From: Promethearchaeota archaeon
Lineage (GTDB): Archaea > Asgardarchaeota > Hermodarchaeia > Hermodarchaeales > Hermodarchaeaceae
Direction of reading: 5' to 3'
Assembly (NCBI GenBank): GCA_048938385.1
Contig: JBHLMG010000014.1
Location: forward strand, 1 to 61,124
DNA length: 61,124 nt
A program made the translations under genes and the position numbers. Shown one piece after another: positions 3,248-61,124 of the stretch. The first letter of the stretch is position 1. Each line of letters begins with the position of its first letter. The notes beneath the pieces are model-generated. The model was not told the DNA's origin, did no database searches, and saw nothing but the letters and a program-made list of their open reading frames with translations.

Positions 3248-3700
3248 GTGGCTTTTGTGACGATTATTACCCTTGTTGGAAAGCGACAAGCTGAAGTGGG
3301 CAAAGAATTCGTGTACATGGGACGCACGAAGGAATGCATCGAATGTCCACTCCGTAAGGTGTGTTGTGATAAGTTGGAACCAGAACGAGTCTATATCGTA
3401 ATTAGCGTGCGAGACCGGGAGCATGAGTGTCCCCTGCATGAAGATGGCGTTCAGCTTGTAGAGGTGGAAGAATCCGGGCAACAGATCACCTTGCCTACTC
3501 ATCAGCTCTTTGAGGGGGCCGTGTTTACAGTGCATGTCCACCCCTGTGATCAGTGGGATTGTGAATACCATACCGCCTGTAATCCGACGGGAATTCGGGA
3601 TGGAGATCGGTGTCGAGTCGAAAAAGTTCACAATCGATCAAAGGTGAAATGCTCAAAAGAGCGGAAATTAGGTCTAGCAGATGTACAGCGCGTGAGCTAA
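3248..3700 (+). CDS. UPF0179 family protein
   Basis: ITLVG...CxxC...C...HxCxxH Cys pattern. Confidence 0.85.
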   Translation: MAFVTIITLVGKRQAEVGKEFVYMGRTKECIECPLRKVCCDKLEPERVYIVISVRDREHECPLHEDGVQLVEVEESGQQITLPTHQLFEGAVFTVHVHPCDQWDCEYHTACNPTGIRDGDRCRVEKVHNRSKVKCSKERKLGLADVQRVS

Positions 3701-3711
3701 CCAGAGTAGAG

Positions 3712-4524
3712 CTAGTCTGTGGCGGGTTTGGCTCCGAGTTCCCAGTCTTCGATGAAGCTGACTTGGGTGTACTTGTCTTTCATGTAGGTTTCAATGTCAT
3801 GGGTGAGACCAAGTTTCCAAAGTTGGAGAGATTGGTTGAGTAACACCCGTGGATCGGCTGTGATGGTGACTGTGACGGTTTTCCCTTTCGCGGCGACTTT
3901 GAGGCTGGTGGGATCTACACCTTCGAAGCGACGATGTAGAAAGGCTTCTAATTTTTCTTGCGTTCTGGTGAGTCTTTTCTTGACGACGATGTCGTAGTTT
4001 ATGGTATGTCCGGCCAGGATGTGATTGAAGTCGACGGTGACTCGACCCCCGCCCACATGGCGTACGGTTCCTGACTGATTGCCGATGCGAACACGCATAC
4101 CGCGGACTAGTTTCTGGTCGGTTTTGATACGGGCCCGAGGTATGATACGCACTTGGCTGCTGTCACGCACTCCAAAGGCTTTCTCAGGTTCGAGTTCAAT
4201 TTTTTTCGTTTCACCGACTTTCATGCCGAGGAGGGCCTCATCCACGCCTGGAACCATCCAGCCTTGTCCAACGATGACGAGGCGGGGTGCATAGGTTTCC
4301 TTTTCGTCGAAGACGCCTTCGGCTTTTGCCACCTCTTCCTTGGTTGTATCGAAAAGACGGTTGTCCTCACTGGTATAACCGGTAAAATCAGCGTAAATGA
4401 AGTCGCCTTCTTTCACTAATGGGATGGTTGCAGGAGGTTTGGCTTTGCTCGGGGTTTTTTTCGCCGTGGTGGTTTTTTTGGGTTTGGAAGACTTGGACAA
4501 TTCGTTCACCTTCGATGCGTGCAT
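3712..4524 (-). CDS. slyD: Long-type FKBP peptidyl-prolyl isomerase (SlyD-like); true start may be 4509 or 4500
   Basis: LFDTT, GVDEALLGM, PEKAFG, VDFNHILAG. Confidence 0.9.
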   Translation of the reverse strand: MHASKVNELSKSSKPKKTTTAKKTPSKAKPPATIPLVKEGDFIYADFTGYTSEDNRLFDTTKEEVAKAEGVFDEKETYAPRLVIVGQGWMVPGVDEALLGMKVGETKKIELEPEKAFGVRDSSQVRIIPRARIKTDQKLVRGMRVRIGNQSGTVRHVGGGRVTVDFNHILAGHTINYDIVVKKRLTRTQEKLEAFLHRRFEGVDPTSLKVAAKGKTVTVTITADPRVLLNQSLQLWKLGLTHDIETYMKDKYTQVSFIEDWELGAKPATD

Positions 4525-4594
4525 GGGAACGGCACGCTTAAGATTTTAAAATCCTTTTGTCTGCTAGCCTTAGTGTCTTGTTTCGAGTAATTTT

Positions 4595-5779
4595 GTGACC
4601 AAAAATTCGGTGATGAACCTCGTGAAGATTCTCATGGTTGTTGAGGCACATGTCAAGGGCGCAGGAGGGGGTCCGATGTATTGGGCTCAACTCAGTGAGC
4701 ACCTGGTTCGTCGTGGACATCAAGTGCAGATCCTCAGTGGTTTTAAACCTGATTCCGAGTTTGTTTCACCGAATACCGTGGGCTTGATACCTATTCGGGG
4801 GGATCTGCGTAGCCGATCCGGATGGACCCTGCTGAGCCGTTATTGGTTTCGGAAACGGTTTGTCCCTGTGGTTCGAACATTTGTTGAGCAATGGCAGCCG
4901 GATATCATTCACACGGTTCCCCCTATTGCTTCGGAAGCAGCCTTGCGAGCAGGAGTTGCCTTAGATATTCCAGTGGTGGCGTCAATTCTATCCCATGTAG
5001 AGGCACAATGGTCCCAGCTTGAACCTAACTGGTTGCGGGCTTACTTGTTCCGTCAACTGGAATTGCGTGCAATTCATCGCCCGTTTCGGCGTATCATCTG
5101 TTTGACGCGTCGGTCTCAGCAGGTATTACAGGCGGAGGGGATTCCTGAGGCGCGGATCGTGTATGTACCTCATGCAGTGGACACCGAGAAGTTCGGTTCA
5201 AAAGCTGTTGCGCGATTTCGCACTCAACTGGCATTGTCTGACGAAACTTTTGTGATTGGATATGCTGGTGTGCTATCGCGTGAGAAGGGAACCTTTCAGT
5301 TGTTTGAAGCGATGGCTCGTCTAGCCAATCTGCATAATCTTGCACTTTTAGTCGCAGGAGAACCTCTTCCAAGCCGTAGACGCCCACTAGCATTGAGAAA
5401 GGCTTTTCGCAATGTGTACTTTTTGGGACGGGTTGAACACGAAGATATGCCTGCGTTTATGGCTTCGTTAGATCTATTCATCATCCCGTCGTGGACGGAA
5501 ACCTTGCCCACCACTCTGCTCGAAGCCCTCGCTACAGGGGTTCCTGTCATGGCGTCAGCTGTGGGTGGAATCAAAGAGTTTCTGAAAAATCGCCTTGGGA
5601 TCATATTGCCTTCACTCAGGACCGAAGACATCGTCCAGGGATTAAATGCATGGATGCCTCGGCGTGAGGATTTGGAGGCGATGGGTCAGGCTGGTCAACG
5701 GTATGTACGGGAACATCATAACTGGAAGCGAACCAGCGAACTTACCGAAGGAGTCTATCAAGCATGTCTCAAGGGCTAG
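4595..5779 (+). CDS. Glycosyltransferase family 4
   Basis: GT-B fold; ETLPTTLLEALATGVPV. Confidence 0.9.
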   Translation: MTKNSVMNLVKILMVVEAHVKGAGGGPMYWAQLSEHLVRRGHQVQILSGFKPDSEFVSPNTVGLIPIRGDLRSRSGWTLLSRYWFRKRFVPVVRTFVEQWQPDIIHTVPPIASEAALRAGVALDIPVVASILSHVEAQWSQLEPNWLRAYLFRQLELRAIHRPFRRIICLTRRSQQVLQAEGIPEARIVYVPHAVDTEKFGSKAVARFRTQLALSDETFVIGYAGVLSREKGTFQLFEAMARLANLHNLALLVAGEPLPSRRRPLALRKAFRNVYFLGRVEHEDMPAFMASLDLFIIPSWTETLPTTLLEALATGVPVMASAVGGIKEFLKNRLGIILPSLRTEDIVQGLNAWMPRREDLEAMGQAGQRYVREHHNWKRTSELTEGVYQACLKG

Positions 5780-23644: not shown

Positions 23645-24031
23645 TTATTCTGTTCCTCCCTGCATGGTCCGTTTAACAGTTGTAGGTTGAGGGAGTTTCC
23701 GGTGTCGTGTCCAAAGAACCTTACGCCGATACCCACAGGACAGACAAGTGATGACTACAGATCCATTGCGACCTGCCGTCCGGGTTCGCACTCGGGCATT
23801 TATGCCTGGTCGCAGGAACTGATCGCAGCGATGACAGTACCGATGCCGCCACTCGCGTGGCAATCGGACCCGCGTTCGCATGACAATACGTCGAGCCATC
23901 TGCACATACCGACGAGCCAGTTTCGGATCCTTAGGTGCTACTTCCTCGGCGAACTGAACGAGATTGCGCAGGTGCTGCATCACCATTGCACGCCACCGAC
24001 GGCTCCCACGAACACTCACAATTAACACCAA
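23645..24031 (-). CDS. rnp4: RNase P protein Rpp21
   Basis: LARRYV, YCHRC...PG..ARVR...CLSCG zinc ribbon. Confidence 0.9.
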   Translation of the reverse strand: MVLIVSVRGSRRWRAMVMQHLRNLVQFAEEVAPKDPKLARRYVQMARRIVMRTRVRLPREWRHRYCHRCDQFLRPGINARVRTRTAGRNGSVVITCLSCGYRRKVLWTRHRKLPQPTTVKRTMQGGTE

Positions 24032-24044
24032 AAACTTGGAAGAA

Positions 24045-24118
24045 TGGTGCGCTGTCCGGGATTCGAACCCGGGTACCCAGCGTGGCAGGCTGGAGTCATG
24101 CCACTAGACCAACAGCGC
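24045..24118 (-). tRNA. tRNA-Gly(GCC), CCA encoded
   Basis: Cloverleaf; anticodon arm CCAGC-CTGCCAC-GCTGG; GGTTCGAATCC. Confidence 0.96.
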
Positions 24119-24242
24119 ACGGAGCTATTCCAATCCGTCACTCCTTTTATTGGTTTTGGCTCTCTCTGCTTTCAAGGTCTGAGCTGCAATTGCATGGTTA
24201 AAGGAAACACTTAAACAACGGCACGCTACTCCTGCGGGCTAG

Positions 24243-24348
24243 GCGGTCGTGGTCTAGTGGTTATGATTTTGGCCTTCCACGCCGAATACCCGGGTTCGAA
24301 GGCTGCAACGCGCATTGCGTCAGCGCGAGACTCCCGGCGACCGCACCA
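24243..24348 (+). tRNA. tRNA-Gly(TCC) with 31-nt intron in the T-loop (59/60; 24301-24331)
   Basis: Cloverleaf is restored by removing the insert; BHB-like helix TTCG/CGAG. Confidence 0.9.
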
Positions 24349-24486
24349 CTCTTATTTTTTGCAGCACCTTCGGTGAAAACTGGCACCTAATTTGTATGGA
24401 AAAGGGGGAGAAGCGGTGAGGCTTCGTTTTCTTTCTTTAAATCGAAAATGTTCGATATTTTCTTATAAGTTTAGGGTAATAGTAAA

Positions 24487-24495
24487 TTTTATAAG
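24487..24495 (+). promoter_or_regulatory. TATA box for leader and ORF 24617
   Basis: TTTTATAAG in AT-rich context. Confidence 0.5.
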
Positions 24496-24616
24496 TGATT
24501 GTTGTATAGTATAGTTTAGAGCATATGTTTCCCGTTCTCCCCACGAGCAACGAGCCTAGCAGGCTCCAATGGAAACAATGGGGAGGGAGAGCTCACCTAC
24601 ATGGAGGTAGAGCTTC

Positions 24617-25012
24617 ATGGCAACAAAACAAACGCAATACATTCCCCCTGTGGAAATCCACGATTACCGACAGTTCCTAGCTTATGCTCGAGAAGCCGTA
24701 ATTGTGACCTTCGAGCCAGTGTATTATGTAGCACCCTTCGAAAGCGATGTAATCGGCGTACCAGCGCAGTGGCTCCGTGCCCTCCGCATCTACGCAATTG
24801 GCGTAAAGCTCAACGGAAGCTTCATGACCATGATGCATCGCATTGAATTTCCATCAAAAGCCCTAGATTATGAAGAAGGCGTCTTCGATTGTGTAGCGAA
24901 CGAAGAGCAGCTAGCCCATGTCGTTCGTGAACTGGAAACCGAATTTCATGCCGTACCAGGTGCGCCGGAGCAGCCTTCCTTGCATGACGAATGGATCCGG
25001 ACATTACGGTAG
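24617..25012 (+). CDS. Hypothetical protein
   Basis: GGAGG SD upstream, plausible globular composition. Confidence 0.7.
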   Translation: MATKQTQYIPPVEIHDYRQFLAYAREAVIVTFEPVYYVAPFESDVIGVPAQWLRALRIYAIGVKLNGSFMTMMHRIEFPSKALDYEEGVFDCVANEEQLAHVVRELETEFHAVPGAPEQPSLHDEWIRTLR

Positions 25013-25099
25013 CGAGCGTTTATCACCAACGGAACGAAAACAATATTAAGGCGCGAATCTTGACACACCAGAGCGTGTGCTTTCGAATTAGCACGCTTT

Positions 25100-25176
25100 G
25101 GGCCGGTGGTCTAGTTGGTTATGACGCCGTCCTGACACGGCGGAGGTCCCGTGTTCAAATCACGGCCGGCCCACCA
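25100..25176 (+). tRNA. tRNA-Val(GAC)
   Basis: Cloverleaf; CCGTC-CTGACAC-GGCGG; CCA encoded. Confidence 0.96.
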
Positions 25177-25179
25177 TCT

Positions 25180-25321
25180 GCCGACGTAGCTTAGCCCGGG
25201 AGTAGCCCGACTTACGAGTTGTGTGCTGCTATCCGAAAGCGCGGGACTGAAGGCGTTTTGCGCTTCAGGCAAAGCGCACGAGATCCCGTTGTCGCGTGTT
25301 CAAATCACGCCGTCGGCACCA
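25180..25321 (+). tRNA. tRNA-Phe(GAA) with two introns (about 22/23: 25203-25237; 37/38: 25253-25282)
   Basis: Exons join into a typical archaeal tRNA-Phe; CGGGA-CTGAAGA-TCCCG; both introns form hairpins. Confidence 0.88.
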
Positions 25322-25361
25322 TTTTTTTCTCAAACCAGCTATTAGTGGGCAGCATCACCGA

Positions 25362-25862
25362 TTAAGTGCGAAAAAGCCAGTCAAAGAGAACCGCGAGGGA
25401 CAGAGCGATGAGGGCCCCTGCAGTGTTGGCGATGATGTAGCCAACAAGGTAGGCGAGTTGAGCCCAAGGCGAGTAGAAGAAGATGAGGACATAGAACCCA
25501 GCCCAGATGATTAGGATTACGAGGAAGGCTAGGAGAAAGATGCCGAATCGTCGGAGATATTGACGGAGAGGACTTGGTTCAGGAACGCCTCGACGCGGAC
25601 GGTAGGGGAAAATCCGAACTGCAAAGAAATTCGCCAACACAGCGGTGGCGGTAGCTTGAGCCAAGACGACCCCAAGAGGAACCATAGCGAGAAGAATGGG
25701 GGAGACAATGAAGTAGATGTAGGCACCAGTATAGGAGAGGAAGATTTGGAGGGCTCCAAAGAGGCCGAAGACAATGAGAAGGAAAGCCCCGTCTTCTACC
25801 GTATTCCAGAAATAAGCCTGCGACATGAGTGGCACCTCGAGATAGGTTAGGGTGTGAAGCAA
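25362..25862 (-). CDS. Hypothetical membrane protein (about 4 TM)
   Basis: Hydrophobic segments. Confidence 0.7.
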   Translation of the reverse strand: MLHTLTYLEVPLMSQAYFWNTVEDGAFLLIVFGLFGALQIFLSYTGAYIYFIVSPILLAMVPLGVVLAQATATAVLANFFAVRIFPYRPRRGVPEPSPLRQYLRRFGIFLLAFLVILIIWAGFYVLIFFYSPWAQLAYLVGYIIANTAGALIALSLAVLFDWLFRT

Positions 25863-25923
25863 CGGGTTAGCTTTGTCTGTATTAATGTTTTCGTCTCAGA
25901 CGGTCTCGACTTGATAGCAAAAA

Positions 25924-26029
25924 TGGTGGACCGGCCGGGATTTGAACCCGGGGCCTCCGCCAGTTTGGTACATCCCTTGAATCGGATGATGTATGCCAAG
26001 ACGGCGATCTACCGCTGATCTACCGGCCC
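25924..26029 (-). tRNA. tRNA-Ala(GGC) with 31-nt intron at 37/38 (25963-25993)
   Basis: GGGCCGG acceptor with G3:U70; CCGTC-TTGGCA|T-GGCGG; CCA encoded. Confidence 0.92.
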
Positions 26030-37632: not shown

Positions 37633-38162
37633 GATTTTGCCACATGTTTACTATAAATTAGTAAACATTTATAAACTTTTGTATAGCAGCAGGAGCCAAT
37701 TCAGGCTACATGCGAAGCTGTTACCGCATCTAGCCCGACACAGCCCGACACCCAATTCAGTAAAAACTAGGCGTCAAGGCCATTTTTCGATCGGAATTGA
37801 ATTGTAAAAGGAGAACCGGATTCCAATGCTTCCAAAGAACACCAGACACGGCACTCTTCATCATTTTCCTGCTTGCGAGCCTCGTTACAATATGTGACCT
37901 CAACACCTACATTTACTCACATTGTATAAGTCCCAAATGACCAATTTTGTACTCGGTATATGATAGGACACGCTGTATGTCCTCGATGACTACTTTTTGT
38001 ATGACTATATGACATGACACAGCCTGAATATCCCGATTACCGATTTTTTGGTCGTATAGTGATAGGACTCGCACTTGAAGAAGCGGATAAAAGAAGGAGT
38101 TGTTCACAAATATTGCATTTAAAGCACTGTAAAGGGTATGGATGAACACTTAGCACAATTAG

Positions 38163-47458: not shown

Positions 47459-47547
47459 TTATTCCTCGAAATTTTTGAATCACTGGTGTGGTCTTATCAA
47501 GGCGATTATGACCTTCAACGAGTATCCATTTGCTTGTTTATCACACG
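47459..47547 (-). repeat. Degenerate copy of hydrogenase 3'-end repeat
   Basis: Translates (with frameshifts) to INKQM...HNRLDKTTPVIQNFEE*. Confidence 0.65.
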
Positions 47548-49067: not shown

Positions 49068-49086
49068 TTTTCAGCACCTTTCTATT

Positions 49087-49147
49087 TATTGGATGCCCAA
49101 TACCTATTATTGGGCACCCTATATTTAAATGTATTGGGCACCCTATA
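49087..49147. promoter_or_regulatory. Three palindromic operators TATTGG-N4-CC(A/T)ATA around a TTTAAAT box
   Basis: Sites at 49087-49102, 49108-49123, 49132-49147. Confidence 0.8.
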
Positions 49148-49223
49148 CCTTCACCCTAATTCCGTGAAAACCCCATGTAGAAAAACACGAGCCTGACCCG
49201 CGGTGGCTAAGGACCATCCACAA

Positions 49224-49565
49224 TTAGGTTGAGGGCTTGCGCGCCTCGATAATATCATCGAACACCCGGAAAAAGTACCGTGTGGCCTCATTTAACCCCG
49301 ATCGTCCCTCCTCCGTTAAAGAAAAGATCACTTGCCTCCCCTCTCGTGCCCGGCGAACAAGTTTCTTTTGCGCGAGCTCTTTGAGGGCGGGATATATGGT
49401 GCCAGGAGTGGGTTTGCTACCTCGTCGCAGTCCAATCTGCTCAGCGAGTTCTTGGCCATTCATAGGTTTTTTACTCAGCTCCCAGAGAATCTGAAAGGAC
49501 AGCATACCCCGCATATCGCAGCAGTCAGGAGGGCAGCATTCGTCGGTTTGTTTTTCGTCAGGCAT
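49224..49565 (-). CDS. PadR-family regulator with Cys-rich N-terminus
   Basis: CCPPDCCDMRGML..., PGTIYPALKEL, LTEEG; start reassigned to ATG 49565. Confidence 0.88.
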   Translation of the reverse strand: MPDEKQTDECCPPDCCDMRGMLSFQILWELSKKPMNGQELAEQIGLRRGSKPTPGTIYPALKELAQKKLVRRAREGRQVIFSLTEEGRSGLNEATRYFFRVFDDIIEARKPST

Positions 49566-49571
49566 AGTATT

Positions 49572-49638
49572 TATTGGGCACCCGATACATTTAAATGTGT
49601 TTGTTTCTTTACTCACCCCATATATTGGTCATCCAATA
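49572..49638. promoter_or_regulatory. Two further operators in the padR/arsM divergent promoter
   Basis: TATTGGGCACCCGATA 49572-49587; TATTGGTCATCCAATA 49623-49638. Confidence 0.8.
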
Positions 49639-51024: not shown

Positions 51025-51242
51025 ATCAGGATGCTTTCATCTATAATCCTAACAAAAAAGACAGACTGGCCTACAACAAGAGCAGACCAAAAGGGCTCTA
51101 ATCCGAGAAACAATGAATTGTCAGGGTTCACTCATCTTCGTATTTAAACACTTGAGCCACATTCTCATCACCCCATGACCGAGTCGCACAACAGGCCTAT
51201 GCATAACAGCGCGAACCCCTCATGCACCGCATGCACAGAAGA

Positions 51243-55687: not shown

Positions 55688-55783
55688 CTATTCTTGGAAG
55701 TTCTGAATCACCTGCGTCGTCTCACCCAAGTGATTCTTCACCGTCATACACAATATCATGTTCCCACTCATGGTGTGCATGGC
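55688..55783 (-). repeat. Hydrogenase 3'-end repeat copy
   Basis: In frame: AMHTMSGNMILCMTVKNHLGETTQVIQNFQE*. Confidence 0.85.
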
Positions 55784-55836
55784 AATCGTCTTCAGAAAAA
55801 TATTAAGACAACAGTCAAGAAAGCCACTTCAGAGGG

Positions 55837-56202
55837 ATGAATTTGCAGGAAAAGGACGCCATATCCTCTAGAAAAATCATTGGATTAGTTTTTGGTTATA
55901 TGGGGAGCTTTGAAGCATTTCTCGCATCCATCAACTTCTACCTCATGCCTGGCTGGATGTACTACCCGCTCATCCTCCCTATCAGCATCCCTTCCCTTTT
56001 GATCTTCTTCATCAGTACGACGCTAATCTTCAAAGCCCCCCAACCTGCAGGCTGCTTCCTCCTCGTAGGAAGCCTTGCCAGTGCCACGCTCACCCTCCTT
56101 TTCCCCTTCAGAATCCAAGGTCTCGGACTTGAACTCCTCATGGCAGCCCTCCTCGCTGGTATCGGAGGTACCGCAGCGCTACTCACAGGACGAACCAAAT
56201 GA
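55837..56202 (+). CDS. Hypothetical membrane protein
   Basis: 4 hydrophobic segments. Confidence 0.7.
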   Translation: MNLQEKDAISSRKIIGLVFGYMGSFEAFLASINFYLMPGWMYYPLILPISIPSLLIFFISTTLIFKAPQPAGCFLLVGSLASATLTLLFPFRIQGLGLELLMAALLAGIGGTAALLTGRTK

Positions 56203-56232
56203 TGGACACTAATTTTCAAAGGTCTGCAGCAG

Positions 56233-57084
56233 TTAACTAAATGCAACAGACCAAATCGCTTGTATTTCAGATTCAGTCAGCTGTCGTTGGGTTTTCGTTT
56301 GCTCATCGATGACTGTGACATTCACTTCACCGGGTTTCCGAGTTTTATCACGGAGAAGAGATTTCACGACCAGTGCCAGGGCTTGTTTAAAAGGTAAATC
56401 TGGTTTGACTCCTACCTTCAACAGCTCCTTAGCTGCTTTGCGATGTTGCCCCTCAGCCCAGGCGAGAACCTCCCGATAGGTGCCACTAGGATCCAGCACA
56501 AACAGGTGACTTCCCGTATCGTCAACGCCCCCAAGCAATGTCACGATTCCTAAGGGTCGACTTTCTTTTTTCGTCGTATACGAATGGATGAACAACGCCA
56601 ACTGGTTAGCTAGCTCTTCAACGAAAATTGGTGCCTTGGTCTCTGCTTTAAAGGCGTTCGCAAGGGAAATCGCATGATTCTTCAACAAATTAAAATCACC
56701 CGATAATCCCGTGGGCACCATCCCGATGTGATTGACAACCCGATAATTTTCCCAGGGATGATGGACCACGAAGGACAGGTCATCGTTCGCAGCCTCGCGA
56801 ACCCGCTCTTTGGCGAGGATAACCCCCTTATCATATCGCAGCCCCACAATCGTGACCCCCCGCGGTGGGGATTCCATGGCGTACTCGATTTGGAAGATGC
56901 GCCCATCCGGGGAAAACAGCGTGGTATCATCGTAGCCGCTGGGCATCCGAATCGGCAGGGTTTCAAAGTACCGGATTAGGGCGGCACGGATGAGTTCGGC
57001 TTTACTGCTGAACATGCCTTTCTGGACGACGGTGTCCATGAACCGGTCCAGTTCGGTGGAAACGACGACGCGTACTTCAGGCAT
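56233..57084 (-). CDS. RHH domain fused to a proteasome alpha-like subunit
   Basis: GMFSSKAELIRAAL RHH, then YDDTTLFSPDGRIFQIEYA, RPLG, LDPSG; GGAGG SD before ATG 57084. Confidence 0.85.
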   Translation of the reverse strand: MPEVRVVVSTELDRFMDTVVQKGMFSSKAELIRAALIRYFETLPIRMPSGYDDTTLFSPDGRIFQIEYAMESPPRGVTIVGLRYDKGVILAKERVREAANDDLSFVVHHPWENYRVVNHIGMVPTGLSGDFNLLKNHAISLANAFKAETKAPIFVEELANQLALFIHSYTTKKESRPLGIVTLLGGVDDTGSHLFVLDPSGTYREVLAWAEGQHRKAAKELLKVGVKPDLPFKQALALVVKSLLRDKTRKPGEVNVTVIDEQTKTQRQLTESEIQAIWSVAFS

Positions 57085-57163
57085 CCATAAAACCTCCAGA
57101 AAAATGGATATATAGCGGATAATATAAGTGTACCGCGGTAAACGGAGCAAAGGGAGCGACACC

Positions 57164-57280
57164 GTGAAGAAAATCAGCCTCCCCGAACCCAGCTACTGGA
57201 AACTCGTCGAGCTGAAAGCCAAGCTACGATGCGCCACTTGGAAAGAACTCATCGACACCCTCTACCAGAGGCTGGCGTAA
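57164..57280 (+). CDS. 38-aa RHH-like protein (absent from ORF track)
   Basis: MKKISLPEPSYWKLVELKAKLRCATWKELIDTLYQRLA; GGAG upstream; divergent from the proteasome-like gene. Confidence 0.55.
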   Translation: MKKISLPEPSYWKLVELKAKLRCATWKELIDTLYQRLA

Positions 57281-57300: not shown

Positions 57301-57407
57301 CTAATCCTCGAAGTTCTGAATCGCCTGCGTTTTCTCACCAAGATTATTGAGCATTTAATTTGCATCGCCATCTGTCCGTTAACCGCGTGAACTGCACAGG
57401 AAAGACA
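57301..57407 (-). repeat. Hydrogenase 3'-end repeat copy (full length, 1-nt deletion)
   Basis: CLSCAVHAVNGQMAMQI/MLNNLGEKTQAIQNFED*. Confidence 0.88.
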
Positions 57408-57459
57408 TCTTATTCAAGTGAATTCTCTAGCATCTTTAAAATGGGAATTTGTTTGCGAG

Positions 57460-59205
57460 TCACTCCCAGTCAGTGGAAGGAGTCGTTCCAAGTGGAAGAG
57501 GCTTGCCAGGTGTTGCAGGTGAATAGCGGAGTCCATTCCACAGAAAGTCAAAGGCAAAGACGAAGAACAACAAGAGCGTGCCAGGTATGAAGAGGACCAG
57601 AGGATTCGTAAAGAAAACACCACCGAACAGGAGGTCTTGAACCACCCAGCCGAGGTTCCACGAGAAACCGAATCCCAGGAATCCCGCCACAAAGGCGATT
57701 GCTCCACCCACCAAACAGTAAAGGACAAACAAGGGAATCAAGGACTTAGCCCATTCGCGTGGTATACTGGCACTCTTCCCAAGATTCGAGTTGCTGATTT
57801 TCCGGATTACTCCGGCTGAAAGGAGTACACCTACTATGAAAGTCATTCGTCCAAAAGTGCTGATGTAGAGGGCTGGAACCACGGGTAAAATGCACAAGGT
57901 GAGCACGATGACTGAAAATGGGAAGGCTAGCAGATAGTTGAGGGGCCAGGAAAGCTTGGTTCGAAGGGCATAGTACGCCCCTAACCCGATGAGCCCTCCA
58001 ACCACCGTGGCGATGAGGCTAATCTGTACGCTCTCCATGAGCAGAGGAAGCAGGCTCATTAACGAGTATTCCAGGGGAGCAGACCGGGGCCAGGGTTGCG
58101 CGGTAAAGGAGAACTGTCCGGCGATAGCTAATGCGACGAGGCTGCAGACGAGGACGATGCCAACAATGATGTGGGGTCGGTGAAGCGTTGATTTTTCTGG
58201 TGGGATCACCTGTTGTCCGTGGAGTTCGACTGGGTTCCGGTAGATAGTCCATCGCAGGATCCCTTCGAGGAGGATGGCAGCTAATCCAAAGGTAAGAATG
58301 TAGGTCACAAGAATCGCCAAGAGTCCTGGGAAATTCATCATGAAAATATAGGCTAAAAGTGCTCGCCCAATCCCATACCAGTTGTAGTAGATTTCAACGG
58401 GGACGGAAATGGAAACCGTCCAAACCAGCAATCGTGGAAGACCGTGGGAGAGCGGTGGCAGCTCATCACCGGGTGGTTGATAGAAGTAGTGCGTTGCCAC
58501 CGCGACAGAAAGGAGGGTAGTGAGCGTTGCTGGTGCAATGAGGTGCCAGCCACGATCTAGCAGTCCTGCAAGTGGATTCAAGGGGAGAGGAAAGCTATAG
58601 GTGCCCCCGAGCGGGAGTAAGCCGAGGAGACCTAACTGGAGAGCCCCCCAGAAAAAGGCGAAGGCAAGCAGTATCCACAGAAATTTTGAGAACACGATGT
58701 TGTACAGGTGTCGTTTCATCCCGTCGAGTGGGGTTGTCGCTCTGCGCCGAAACCAATAGAACACGACGAAAATAAATGACACGATGAGGAACGGTATAAG
58801 GACTAGCAGTAGGGTATTCGGGAACTGAGCACTGATTGGCTCTCCGACGGGACGGTAGCCTTCAATAAAAGAAGCAGTTTGCAAAAGCCGTCCTGAAAAG
58901 ATGTTGAAGAGAAAAATCCCGTATTGGATCGGTAAGGGGGAGTCGAATCCCCAGAGCGCCCTGATGAAAGCAGACAGCTCCTGCTGGTTTGCAGCCATGC
59001 TTCCTGAAATAAACAGCGCGATGGAATCACCCGGGACAATGCGCCAGTAGTAAAACAAGATGCTCGCCACGATGAACAGCACGAAGGCCGGCTTCACCAC
59101 CAAGTCAACAACCACCATCCATGTCGTGCGCTTTGTCCATTTCACCTGCGGCTCAATCAAAGACGAGTCTTCCATCAACGGTTCTTCTGATTCCAAACCA
59201 TCCAT
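57460..59205 (-). CDS. Peptide ABC permease-like protein (DppB-like N-half plus degenerate second permease)
   Basis: PGD, WGFDSPLPIQY, FPNTLLL, VEIYYNWYGIG. Confidence 0.75.
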   Translation of the reverse strand: MDGLESEEPLMEDSSLIEPQVKWTKRTTWMVVVDLVVKPAFVLFIVASILFYYWRIVPGDSIALFISGSMAANQQELSAFIRALWGFDSPLPIQYGIFLFNIFSGRLLQTASFIEGYRPVGEPISAQFPNTLLLVLIPFLIVSFIFVVFYWFRRRATTPLDGMKRHLYNIVFSKFLWILLAFAFFWGALQLGLLGLLPLGGTYSFPLPLNPLAGLLDRGWHLIAPATLTTLLSVAVATHYFYQPPGDELPPLSHGLPRLLVWTVSISVPVEIYYNWYGIGRALLAYIFMMNFPGLLAILVTYILTFGLAAILLEGILRWTIYRNPVELHGQQVIPPEKSTLHRPHIIVGIVLVCSLVALAIAGQFSFTAQPWPRSAPLEYSLMSLLPLLMESVQISLIATVVGGLIGLGAYYALRTKLSWPLNYLLAFPFSVIVLTLCILPVVPALYISTFGRMTFIVGVLLSAGVIRKISNSNLGKSASIPREWAKSLIPLFVLYCLVGGAIAFVAGFLGFGFSWNLGWVVQDLLFGGVFFTNPLVLFIPGTLLLFFVFAFDFLWNGLRYSPATPGKPLPLGTTPSTDWE

Positions 59206-59266
59206 CGTGAAAGGAAATCCCTCCGCGGGGTACTCAAAAATTCACTAATTTTAACTTATCGAGAAC

Positions 59267-59373
59267 TTATTCCTTGAAGTTCTGCAGCCCCTGCGTCGTC
59301 TCACCCAGATGGTTACGACCTCAATGCGCGTCGCCATGTGCCTATTCACAGCGTACACAGCACAAGAAAGACA
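59267..59373 (-). repeat. Hydrogenase 3'-end repeat copy (full length, 1-nt deletion)
   Basis: CLSCAVYAVNRHMATRIE/RNHLGETTQGLQNFKE*. Confidence 0.88.
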
Positions 59374-59467
59374 ATGCTCCCAAGGTTTAAAGCCAATAGT
59401 TGGTCTCTTCTAGCGGGTGGAGGGTGATGATGAACATCTTCCACAAATATCTAGGGATTGTGATGCT

Positions 59468-60661
59468 ATGGAGGCGGAGTGCTGGAACTGCGGTGCACCC
59501 GTCAAGCTAGACGAGGATCAGTTCTGTCCACAGTGCGGGGTCCAACTCCCCCGGTTCGTTATTAAAATCAAGTTGTGTGAAACTACTCATCCAACACCAC
59601 GATTCCATCCTGATCCTCTCAAACGCTTGGAAGGAGCAATGGCTACCCGGTTTCGTGAATTCCTCATCAAAGAAATCGCCCTACTCCCTGATGAAGCACT
59701 CCCCATTTCCGAACCATACCTACCACCTGTAATCCCCGCACCTCCACGAATAATACCAATACCGCCAACTGAGCCCCTTCCTCCAGGTACACCGTTGGCT
59801 GGCATGATTCACCACGCTTACATCATAGACGCGAGGGGCGAATTCGTGGTTAACGAAGAATTCTGGAACATTACAGTTGAAGAGGCTTGGATTACAGACT
59901 TTGCTGAGTGTGTTAAAGATGCCCAAGACACCCTCATCGAGGAAATTAACGGCACAAAGCTCATCGGGAAGCCCTTGGGTCGAGGGATAGTTGTCTTGAG
60001 TGCTGACAGTGCTGCAGGTGACGCCACGCTCCGCGAAAAACTCGACCGCGTCACCTACGAGTTCCGCCGCGTCATCAGCCACGAAATTGCATACGACGAC
60101 TTCATTGATAGAGTCGATGACTATGTCACCACCACATGCAAAATCAGCATCATCGGCTATGGTGGCGTCGGCAAAACCGACATCGTCACCCTCCTCAATG
60201 GCGGTGTCCCACCAACTGAGTATACACCTACGATTGCTATTGACATCCAGAGAATCGAAGATTTTCGCATCGGTACATTAGAAATCTCTACTTGGGATTT
60301 CCCTAGCCTAGCTCGGTTCCGAAAACTCTGGGAACTCTACTTCCGAGGTAGCCGAATCATCCTCCTCGTCACCGATTCGACGCTAGAAAATGTGCAGAAG
60401 AGCAAAAACATCATCGACTTCATACGCCGTAAAAACATTGCAGCCCAAGTCTTAGCCATTGCCTACAGACAAGATCGGCCAGGGGCTTTATCTCTCAATC
60501 TCGTGCAACGCTTTCTTGGCATCAAAGCACTGGGACTTACCGAAGGCGAAGTGAGATCCGGAGACCCAGCCACCGCCATGAAAATCATCACAGAAGCGAT
60601 GAAACTCGCTGCACCTAAAAAAGAACCAGAGACACCAAAGCCTGAAATGGTGTTTGATTAG
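59468..60661 (+). CDS. Zinc ribbon plus Ras/Arf-like small GTPase domain protein
   Basis: CWNC..CPQC; G1 GYGGVGKT, G2 YTPTI, WDFPS, AYRQD. Confidence 0.85.
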   Translation: MEAECWNCGAPVKLDEDQFCPQCGVQLPRFVIKIKLCETTHPTPRFHPDPLKRLEGAMATRFREFLIKEIALLPDEALPISEPYLPPVIPAPPRIIPIPPTEPLPPGTPLAGMIHHAYIIDARGEFVVNEEFWNITVEEAWITDFAECVKDAQDTLIEEINGTKLIGKPLGRGIVVLSADSAAGDATLREKLDRVTYEFRRVISHEIAYDDFIDRVDDYVTTTCKISIIGYGGVGKTDIVTLLNGGVPPTEYTPTIAIDIQRIEDFRIGTLEISTWDFPSLARFRKLWELYFRGSRIILLVTDSTLENVQKSKNIIDFIRRKNIAAQVLAIAYRQDRPGALSLNLVQRFLGIKALGLTEGEVRSGDPATAMKIITEAMKLAAPKKEPETPKPEMVFD

Positions 60662-60670
60662 ACCCTGAGG

Positions 60671-60765
60671 CTATTCTTGGAAGTTCTGAATCACCTGCGT
60701 CGTCTCACCTAGATGGTTCAGCACCTTGATATGCATTGCCAACTTCATTCACAGTTGAAGGCACA
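60671..60765 (-). repeat. Hydrogenase 3'-end repeat copy
   Basis: LAMHIKVLNHLGETTQVIQNFQE*; first 39 nt identical to the copy at 55688. Confidence 0.88.
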
Positions 60766-60948
60766 TCAAGGCTTGGGACCAAAGAGATTCGGAAAATACA
60801 CCGCTTTCCGTGTTATCTTCACAGAACATGTCCCCGTTGCACGACACCAATCTTCACAATCCTGCGCCGTTTTCTGATCCAAATACCCCAACCCACACAC
60901 CTCACATACATACAGCCCTTGCCCTTTTACCATCTTCTGCTTCACCAT
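60766..60948 (-). CDS. Small zinc-finger protein
   Basis: YVCEVCGLGY...AQDCEDWC...CSVKITRKAV; GGTGA SD. Confidence 0.75.
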   Translation of the reverse strand: MVKQKMVKGQGLYVCEVCGLGYLDQKTAQDCEDWCRATGTCSVKITRKAVYFPNLFGPKP

Positions 60949-61052: not shown

Positions 61053-61124
61053 TTATTCTACGAAGTTCTGAATGACTTGCGTCATCTCACCGAGGTGATT
61101 CAACACTTTAATCCGCATCGCCAT
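61053..61124 (-). CDS. Probable 3' end of a [NiFe]-hydrogenase large subunit gene (or a further repeat copy), truncated by the window edge
   Basis: Uninterrupted MAMRIKVLNHLGEMTQVIQNFVE*; longer copies link this tail to CLSCAVH. Confidence 0.55.
   Translation of the reverse strand: MAMRIKVLNHLGEMTQVIQNFVE

Follow-up and report, generated by a model that had tools for sequence, protein, structure and literature searches.

ICEs and CIMEs accrete in tandem at the 3' ends of protein genes, for example at Streptococcus fda. A different kind of 3'-end replacement is described for the WHO elements at FBA1 of Torulaspora and Lachancea yeasts (Coughlan et al. 2020, PMC7282813; Osborne et al. 2026, 10.64898/2026.08.13.744650), where the FBA1 fragments begin just downstream of the inferred cut of a LAGLIDADG endonuclease (PMC7282813). 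Fungal mitochondrial endonuclease ORFs that bear the C-terminus of a host gene are summarised, for Allomyces atp6 and Ophiostoma rps3, in PMC4019555. Integrons and CALINs, including archaeal ones, are described by Ghaly et al. (2022, PMC9668308).

The arrays behind the hydrogenase gene mvhA of Hermodarchaeia work like WHO elements but are not members of the WHO family. As in WHO, a free-standing LAGLIDADG gene lies directly downstream of a conserved host gene (here at five related loci, not in the window, by which we mean the whole stretch of 61,124 nt that was analysed). The host 3' end is replaced and old ends are pushed downstream as fragments that start at about one position, live alleles are chimeric with a 3' part more diverse than the 5' part (G006 versus L127/L128, L175 versus L176), and the clusters are polymorphic. 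Unlike WHO, the host is archaeal, the target is a hydrogenase and cleavage is predicted from the sequence. The mvhA nuclease is antisense to its host gene and has no detectable intein or zinc-finger domain, whereas the WHO protein is HO/VDE-related, intein-like and carries zinc fingers; the fragments measure ~105 nt instead of ~400. While WHO clusters consist of nuclease genes and pseudogenes, most mvhA units are unrelated cargo, with nuclease relics behind six displaced copies only. In the literature searched, which covered few subscription journals, we found no report of WHO-type homing in archaea and descriptions from yeasts only. The present arrays would extend it to Asgard archaea, where in two hydrogenase families it is aimed at the codons of the nickel ligands and goes together with accessory-gene rows that change fast.

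Allomyces atp6 and Ophiostoma rps3 likewise combine an inserted endonuclease ORF with a replacement C-terminus and a displaced original, but they consist of one or a few units in organelle genomes, without cargo arrays. Integrons and CALINs (PMC9668308) share with the mvhA arrays short accessory-gene units in a row, a repeated separator site and shuffling between genomes. In contrast to them, the mvhA separator is a dead protein-coding 3' end with no conserved fold, there is no IntI, and genes lie in both orientations; an attC hairpin with conserved R boxes was not found, as the tail has no sense-strand consensus fold and its inverted repeat is not enriched in displaced copies. Like ICEs and CIMEs, the units supply a protein gene with a new 3' end and accumulate as tandem rows, but the integrase, exact crossover and conserved att arms of those elements were not found at the mvhA arrays. 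By these tests the arrays match neither integrons nor integrase-driven islands. Our analysis adds a breakpoint map over 30 junction families, the linkage to nuclease relics and direct tests of the recombinase model.

Displaced mvhA ends and cargo in the window

The window is the entire contig C5 of genome G000, a Hermodarchaeia archaeon whose nearest named relative is Ca. Hermodarchaeum yapensis. Its repeats are 3' ends of mvhA (group 3c [NiFe] hydrogenase), and their translation is the MvhA C-terminus of relatives. The body of the live G000 gene, 89% identical to the hydrogenase of Ca. Hermodarchaeum yapensis, is the terminal gene of an hdrC-hdrB-kor-hdrA-mvhD-mvhG-mvhA run on contig C46, where the contig end truncates it after residue 342. 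Since the G000 assembly contains no intact copy of the motif together with the codons upstream of it, the live mvhA end should lie in a gap beyond 61124. C46 and the window stay unjoined because no longer assembly of the strain was found. A split VhuU-type small subunit or a selenocysteine reading was rejected, relatives having a continuous MvhA of 472-474 aa with Cys codons.

Five clear mvhA 3'-end copies (E 6e-25 to 1e-17), a further faint copy (E 9e-7) and a doubtful one lie in the window. The displaced copies correspond to the last ~105 bases of the gene. From the contig end inwards the features are:

61053..61124, minus strand, mvhA 3'-end copy truncated by the contig end, frame open up to the stop, either live or displaced
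60766..60948, minus strand, cargo, 60-aa Cys-rich ORF, present between tails in relatives too
60671..60765, minus strand, displaced mvhA 3'-end copy, initial codons decayed
59417..60661, plus strand, cargo, zinc-ribbon and Arf/Roc-type small GTPase, convergent on the upstream tail
59267..59373, minus strand, displaced mvhA 3'-end copy, begins at the first Cys codon, breakpoint 59373, frameshifted
57460..59205, minus strand, cargo, membrane protein of 581 aa, N-terminus ABC-permease-like, found between tails of G012 as well
57301..57407, minus strand, displaced mvhA 3'-end copy, begins at the first Cys codon, breakpoint 57407, frameshifted
55837..57280, no strand given, cargo unit of three ORFs
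57128-57280, plus strand, 50-aa ORF of that unit
56233-57084, minus strand, divergent proteasome alpha-like ORF of that unit, with N-terminal extension
55837-56202, plus strand, 121-aa membrane ORF of that unit
55688..55785, minus strand, displaced mvhA 3'-end copy, 5' part decayed
51099..51184, minus strand, doubtful worn copy adjoining a flavin-reductase unit, E 0.036
47460..47544, minus strand, worn distal copy (the faint one) behind a methyltransferase/PadR/nitroreductase unit, junction same as in G001

A relative's contig that starts at the same base as the contig end of the 61053..61124 copy carries a displaced copy. Re-reading the minus strand confirmed what the first-pass annotation had seen, namely that the copies ending at 57407 and 59373 each open with TGT CTT TCY TGT GC behind the unrelated bases ATA AGA and GAG CAT, respectively. 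The two are 73% identical over 106 nt and carry one 1-nt frameshift each.

The GTPase unit has a matching unit in four relatives and is absent from a minority contig of sequencing run X2. Its protein, with a zinc-ribbon, a proline-rich linker and an Arf/Roc GTPase, has three genomic paralogues at 52-71% and is an Asgard-type signature protein travelling as cargo. The proteasome alpha-like protein is only ~30% identical to the other proteasome subunits of the genome, its N-terminal extension has, by eye, a ribbon-helix-helix look, and a 65% relative is found near a group 4 hydrogenase in G003. Across genomes most cargo units span 0.2-4 kb with one or few genes, and their order varies. The first ORF behind the tail is antisense to mvhA in 46 of 59 cases, most ending within 60 nt of the tail. 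Two otherwise divergent tails share 39 identical bases (55688-55726 and 60671-60709). Contig depth in run X1 drops between the 55688 and 60671 tails to about two thirds of the flanks, which fits a subpopulation without three units; the depths along the array (40.6, 26.1 and 36.2) are contig averages and fit a mixed population.

Breakpoint map and live alleles

We ran the repeat profile on the other genomes of the genus and on the sister genus, took further arrays from metagenomes, and compared every displaced copy by score with 19 live alleles, beginning at -45. The profile detected tail arrays in 12 of the 14 other genomes of the genus, and a single copy only in each of four sister-genus genomes. 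Relatives and metagenomes together gave 44 displaced copies with an intact core, which form 30 unrelated upstream-junction families. In these families homology to live mvhA opens at -4 to +11 nt relative to the first Cys codon. The scan reached -45, yet none of the family medians is located further upstream than -4; two single copies start at -6 and -14. The 59373 junction has three orthologues with starts at +2, +2 and +8, so that the exact TGT start is not common even within this junction family. The boundary is a ragged, one-sided zone and not a single base, and its later starts can be explained by decay.

A plot of breakpoints across relatives, as the first-pass annotation had suggested, thus gave no scatter along the gene. 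The shared breakpoint proposed there from two copies is beyond chance and determined by the site, not random, although it does not fall on one exact base. An exact DNA pattern had no match in metagenomes. Several junction families are common to genomes by descent. Linkage of whole tails to their upstream cargo was rejected, as excess identity was absent, and the linkage to downstream cargo was slight and confounded by live copies.

Near-identical strain pairs point to exchange at the end of the live gene itself. G006 and L127/L128 share ~98% identity over 2.1 kb, which drops to 87% across the final 60 nt ahead of the Cys codon and to 64-82% within the tail; between L175 and L176, identity falls from 87-96% to 67-77% from -30 onward. 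Live mvhA is thus chimeric, having taken in an incoming 3' end, and the clean evidence for this comes from near-identical pairs only, as upstream identity among distant live alleles is inflated by a saturated C bias. The incoming tract starts to the left of the boundary seen in displaced copies, a pattern more in line with co-conversion during break repair than with a reciprocal crossover.

The maturation proteases of [NiFe] hydrogenases remove the extension after the His. Each event had been expected to replace the C-terminal ligands together with the maturation peptide. The strain pairs bear out a new 3' end, but all 19 live alleles encode one and the same ligand peptide, CLSCAVH, so the metal ligands are re-supplied and not diversified. 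Variation among alleles falls in the codons just upstream of the site and in the extension after the His.

Fourfold-degenerate sites are 75-78% C to the left of the site and 75% G+T to its right, against a genome mean of 27% C. This switch in composition is a mirror image centred near the site, and the C skew declines with distance and is weaker in the array-free G018. We read it as a putative footprint of repeated breaks.

Several side observations concern these loci. The genes richest in C at fourfold sites are cut off by contig ends (group 4 hydrogenase 0.90, actin 0.81, mvhA 0.76, ribosomal S19-like 0.72); such contig-end genes are located on G000 contigs C31, C15, C11, C46, C19 and C20 and at 1-627 of the window, and the skew may point to additional sites of invasion. 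Short dispersed repeats of four other families cluster near G000 contig ends (C9/C30, C12, C32/C41, C14/C42) and are likely other tail arrays. At L038 (contig C46 of G011) the live mvhA is sister-genus-like and without C skew near its end, the best-kept displaced copies are the distant ones, and one copy is preceded by 150 nt similar to the promoter side of the nuclease unit in G008. A 22-nt duplication in L128 is a probable assembly artefact.

A LAGLIDADG-fold nuclease family behind mvhA

Full-length antisense ORFs of 612-769 aa lie directly behind live mvhA (slot 1) at five loci (L107, L175, L176, L180 and L181; in L176 at 3452-5290, minus strand), and partial ones in G011 and G016. The model of one slot-1 ORF (pLDDT 88) found its best matches in the PI-SceI, I-Tsp061I and TliVMA endonucleases (E 1e-5 to 3e-4), the fold match to PI-SceI being only partial (TM 0.23-0.36), and acidic residues are retained in both LAGLIDADG helices. 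PDB sequences gave no match, and 15 family members contained no intein or zinc-finger Pfam domain. The nucleases are an uncharacterised long LAGLIDADG family. The tree groups four nucleases linked to mvhA in one clade (100/99) and six that are linked to the group 4 hydrogenase in another (100/100). Three further nucleases of mvhA loci remained unplaced, which suggests more than one invasion. The same family stands behind other host genes at L146, L157, L158, L161, L167, L170 and L172, some with duplicated 3' ends.

Relics of nuclease 3' ends were found behind six displaced copies, starting within ~30 nt of the copy end and scoring 22-133 bits, where shuffles reached no more than 6.5; a single unit is the ancestor of three or four of these relics. 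The relics keep the spacing of intact genes, so a nuclease gene must have come in downstream of some tails at least. Most of the ~100 stretches scanned behind tails are without a relic. The copies in the window have neither nuclease gene nor relic behind them (best 3.3 bits), and the G000 assembly contains no mvhA-linked nuclease, where slot 1 may fall in an assembly gap. The group 4 hydrogenase of G000 does carry the same nuclease family in slot 1, and its displaced copy likewise starts at Pro-Cys codons. Of the nuclease-bearing mvhA alleles, three show recoding immediately to the left of the site (RCFDP, RAFDP) and two retain RAYDP or RSYDP, so that resistance in these two would need synonymous changes. 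Nuclease-bearing units differ in their junctions and carry extra genes.

Origin of the shared boundary

We consider, with good confidence, that the shared start would mark the cleavage site of a free-standing LAGLIDADG homing endonuclease targeting the DP|CxxC codons of mvhA. This is suggested by the hard left limit at -4, the one-sided ragged spread over 30 families and the lack of a conserved left flank, by the slot-1 nucleases, their relics and their host-gene-sorted clades, and by the group 4 hydrogenase copy with its nuclease, the recoded sites, the chimeric live gene, the composition switch and the WHO geometry. The case is weakened by the window, which holds neither nuclease nor relic, by the rarity of relics and by the RAYDP/RSYDP alleles.

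The first-pass annotation had favoured a site-specific recombinase crossover at DP|CxxC. In full, this would mean that circular cassettes were integrated by a tyrosine or serine recombinase at an attB inside these codons, each restoring the gene end by tandem accretion as in ICEs and CIMEs. Such enzymes require binding sites flanking an exact crossover. The boundary is fixed, but ragged, and the upstream flanks of the 30 families, at 0.25-0.27 identity against 0.268 expected by chance, contain no conserved left arm. A search for inverted arms at DP|C, likewise proposed in that annotation, gave a best score of 5.1 of 11, with six other centres equal or higher. Modular cassettes do recur in varied order across genomes, and most genomes of the genus have a XerA-like gene, whose product could work in trans. 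Yet PF00589 has no match on the array contigs of 19 genomes (72-91% complete), the sole tyrosine recombinase of G000, XerA-like, lies on another contig, and G000 (90% complete) gave no match to the serine recombinase/resolvase PF00239 and nothing above cut-off for the integron integrase TIGR02249. No go-back (circle) joint was seen in the assembled contigs. They hold one deletion joint elsewhere in the tail, in the minority X2 contig, where 59275 is joined to 60680 and the GTPase unit is skipped; the crossover falls within a 9-nt common stretch ~90 nt downstream of the Cys codon. This joint, seen in one contig at depth 3.4 (X2 may be the source sample), is recombination between tails and not a reversal at DP|C. 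As the replaced tract of the live gene also begins upstream of the boundary and the slot-1 nuclease and its relics are left without explanation, we regard integration by a recombinase as highly improbable and a homing-nuclease cut site as the most likely origin of the boundary. A virus-borne attP was rejected separately, with no IMG/VR match by DNA pattern or peptide.

Tail-tail recombination, as in that joint, and junction families common by descent could also be expected if a single ancient duplication had set the boundary and ordinary homologous recombination and gene insertion had copied it, with no continuing site-specific activity. We find this very unlikely, given that 30 unrelated sequences adjoin the boundary, that a second hydrogenase family breaks at the same codons and that intact-looking nucleases of several lineages occupy slot 1. 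The tail might, finally, have been co-opted as an attC-like folded site of integron/CALIN type, kept whole by selection. The predominantly antisense first ORFs ending close to the tail make an integron-like layout, and the 3' half of the tail contains an imperfect 14-6-14 inverted repeat. However, tails decay freely, no consensus RNA fold was found on the sense strand, the repeat scores 8.2 of 14 in live and 8.3 in displaced copies (p 0.44), and an integron integrase above cut-off is missing in G000, all of which makes co-option extremely improbable. The inverted repeat was rejected as a recombinase site too, being no better kept in displaced than in live copies.

Cleavage by the homing endonuclease would proceed as follows. 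The nuclease would cut a sensitive allele at about the Pro-Cys codons, and the break would be repaired from a donor that carries a recoded mvhA 3' end followed by the nuclease gene on the opposite strand, an arrangement that we see as the product. On the left, repair would recombine 30-120 nt upstream; the right-hand end, starting at the cut, would become the displaced copy. The nuclease gene would then shrink to a short 3' relic or disappear while displaced tails decay, as both are found in the arrays, and recombination between tails, with one product seen, would remove or reshuffle units. Because 30 unrelated junctions need explaining, we further propose, at roughly even chances, that the right-hand cut end and the end of a fragment coming in may be joined non-homologously, giving a new cargo-tail junction; units that retain a whole gene with its promoter would persist. 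The differing junctions and extra genes of the nuclease-bearing units fit repeated non-homologous joining of this kind.

Homing at this site would explain why, in these genomes, contig ends frequently truncate such core genes. The claim is directly testable, as the map of breakpoints narrows the predicted cut site down to a few bases. More tentatively, Hermodarchaeia may possess an integrase-free cassette system in which nuclease breaks at nickel-ligand codons provide a standing point of accessory-gene capture and dead tails serve as shuffling sites. If so, its captured genes would include Asgard-type GTPases, and a selfish nuclease would have opened a second route by which integron-like arrays form.

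Elsewhere in the window, a set of three direct repeats of 37 nt, spaced 49-50 nt, and 23-nt palindromic repeats close to the PadR gene (37937-38072 and 49084-49591) are probably regulator sites. A tRNA cluster lies at 23900-26000, where ARAGORN calls Gly and Val only; at ~25290 and ~25920 there are additional 3' halves of tRNA-like sequence, which suggest tRNAs with introns.
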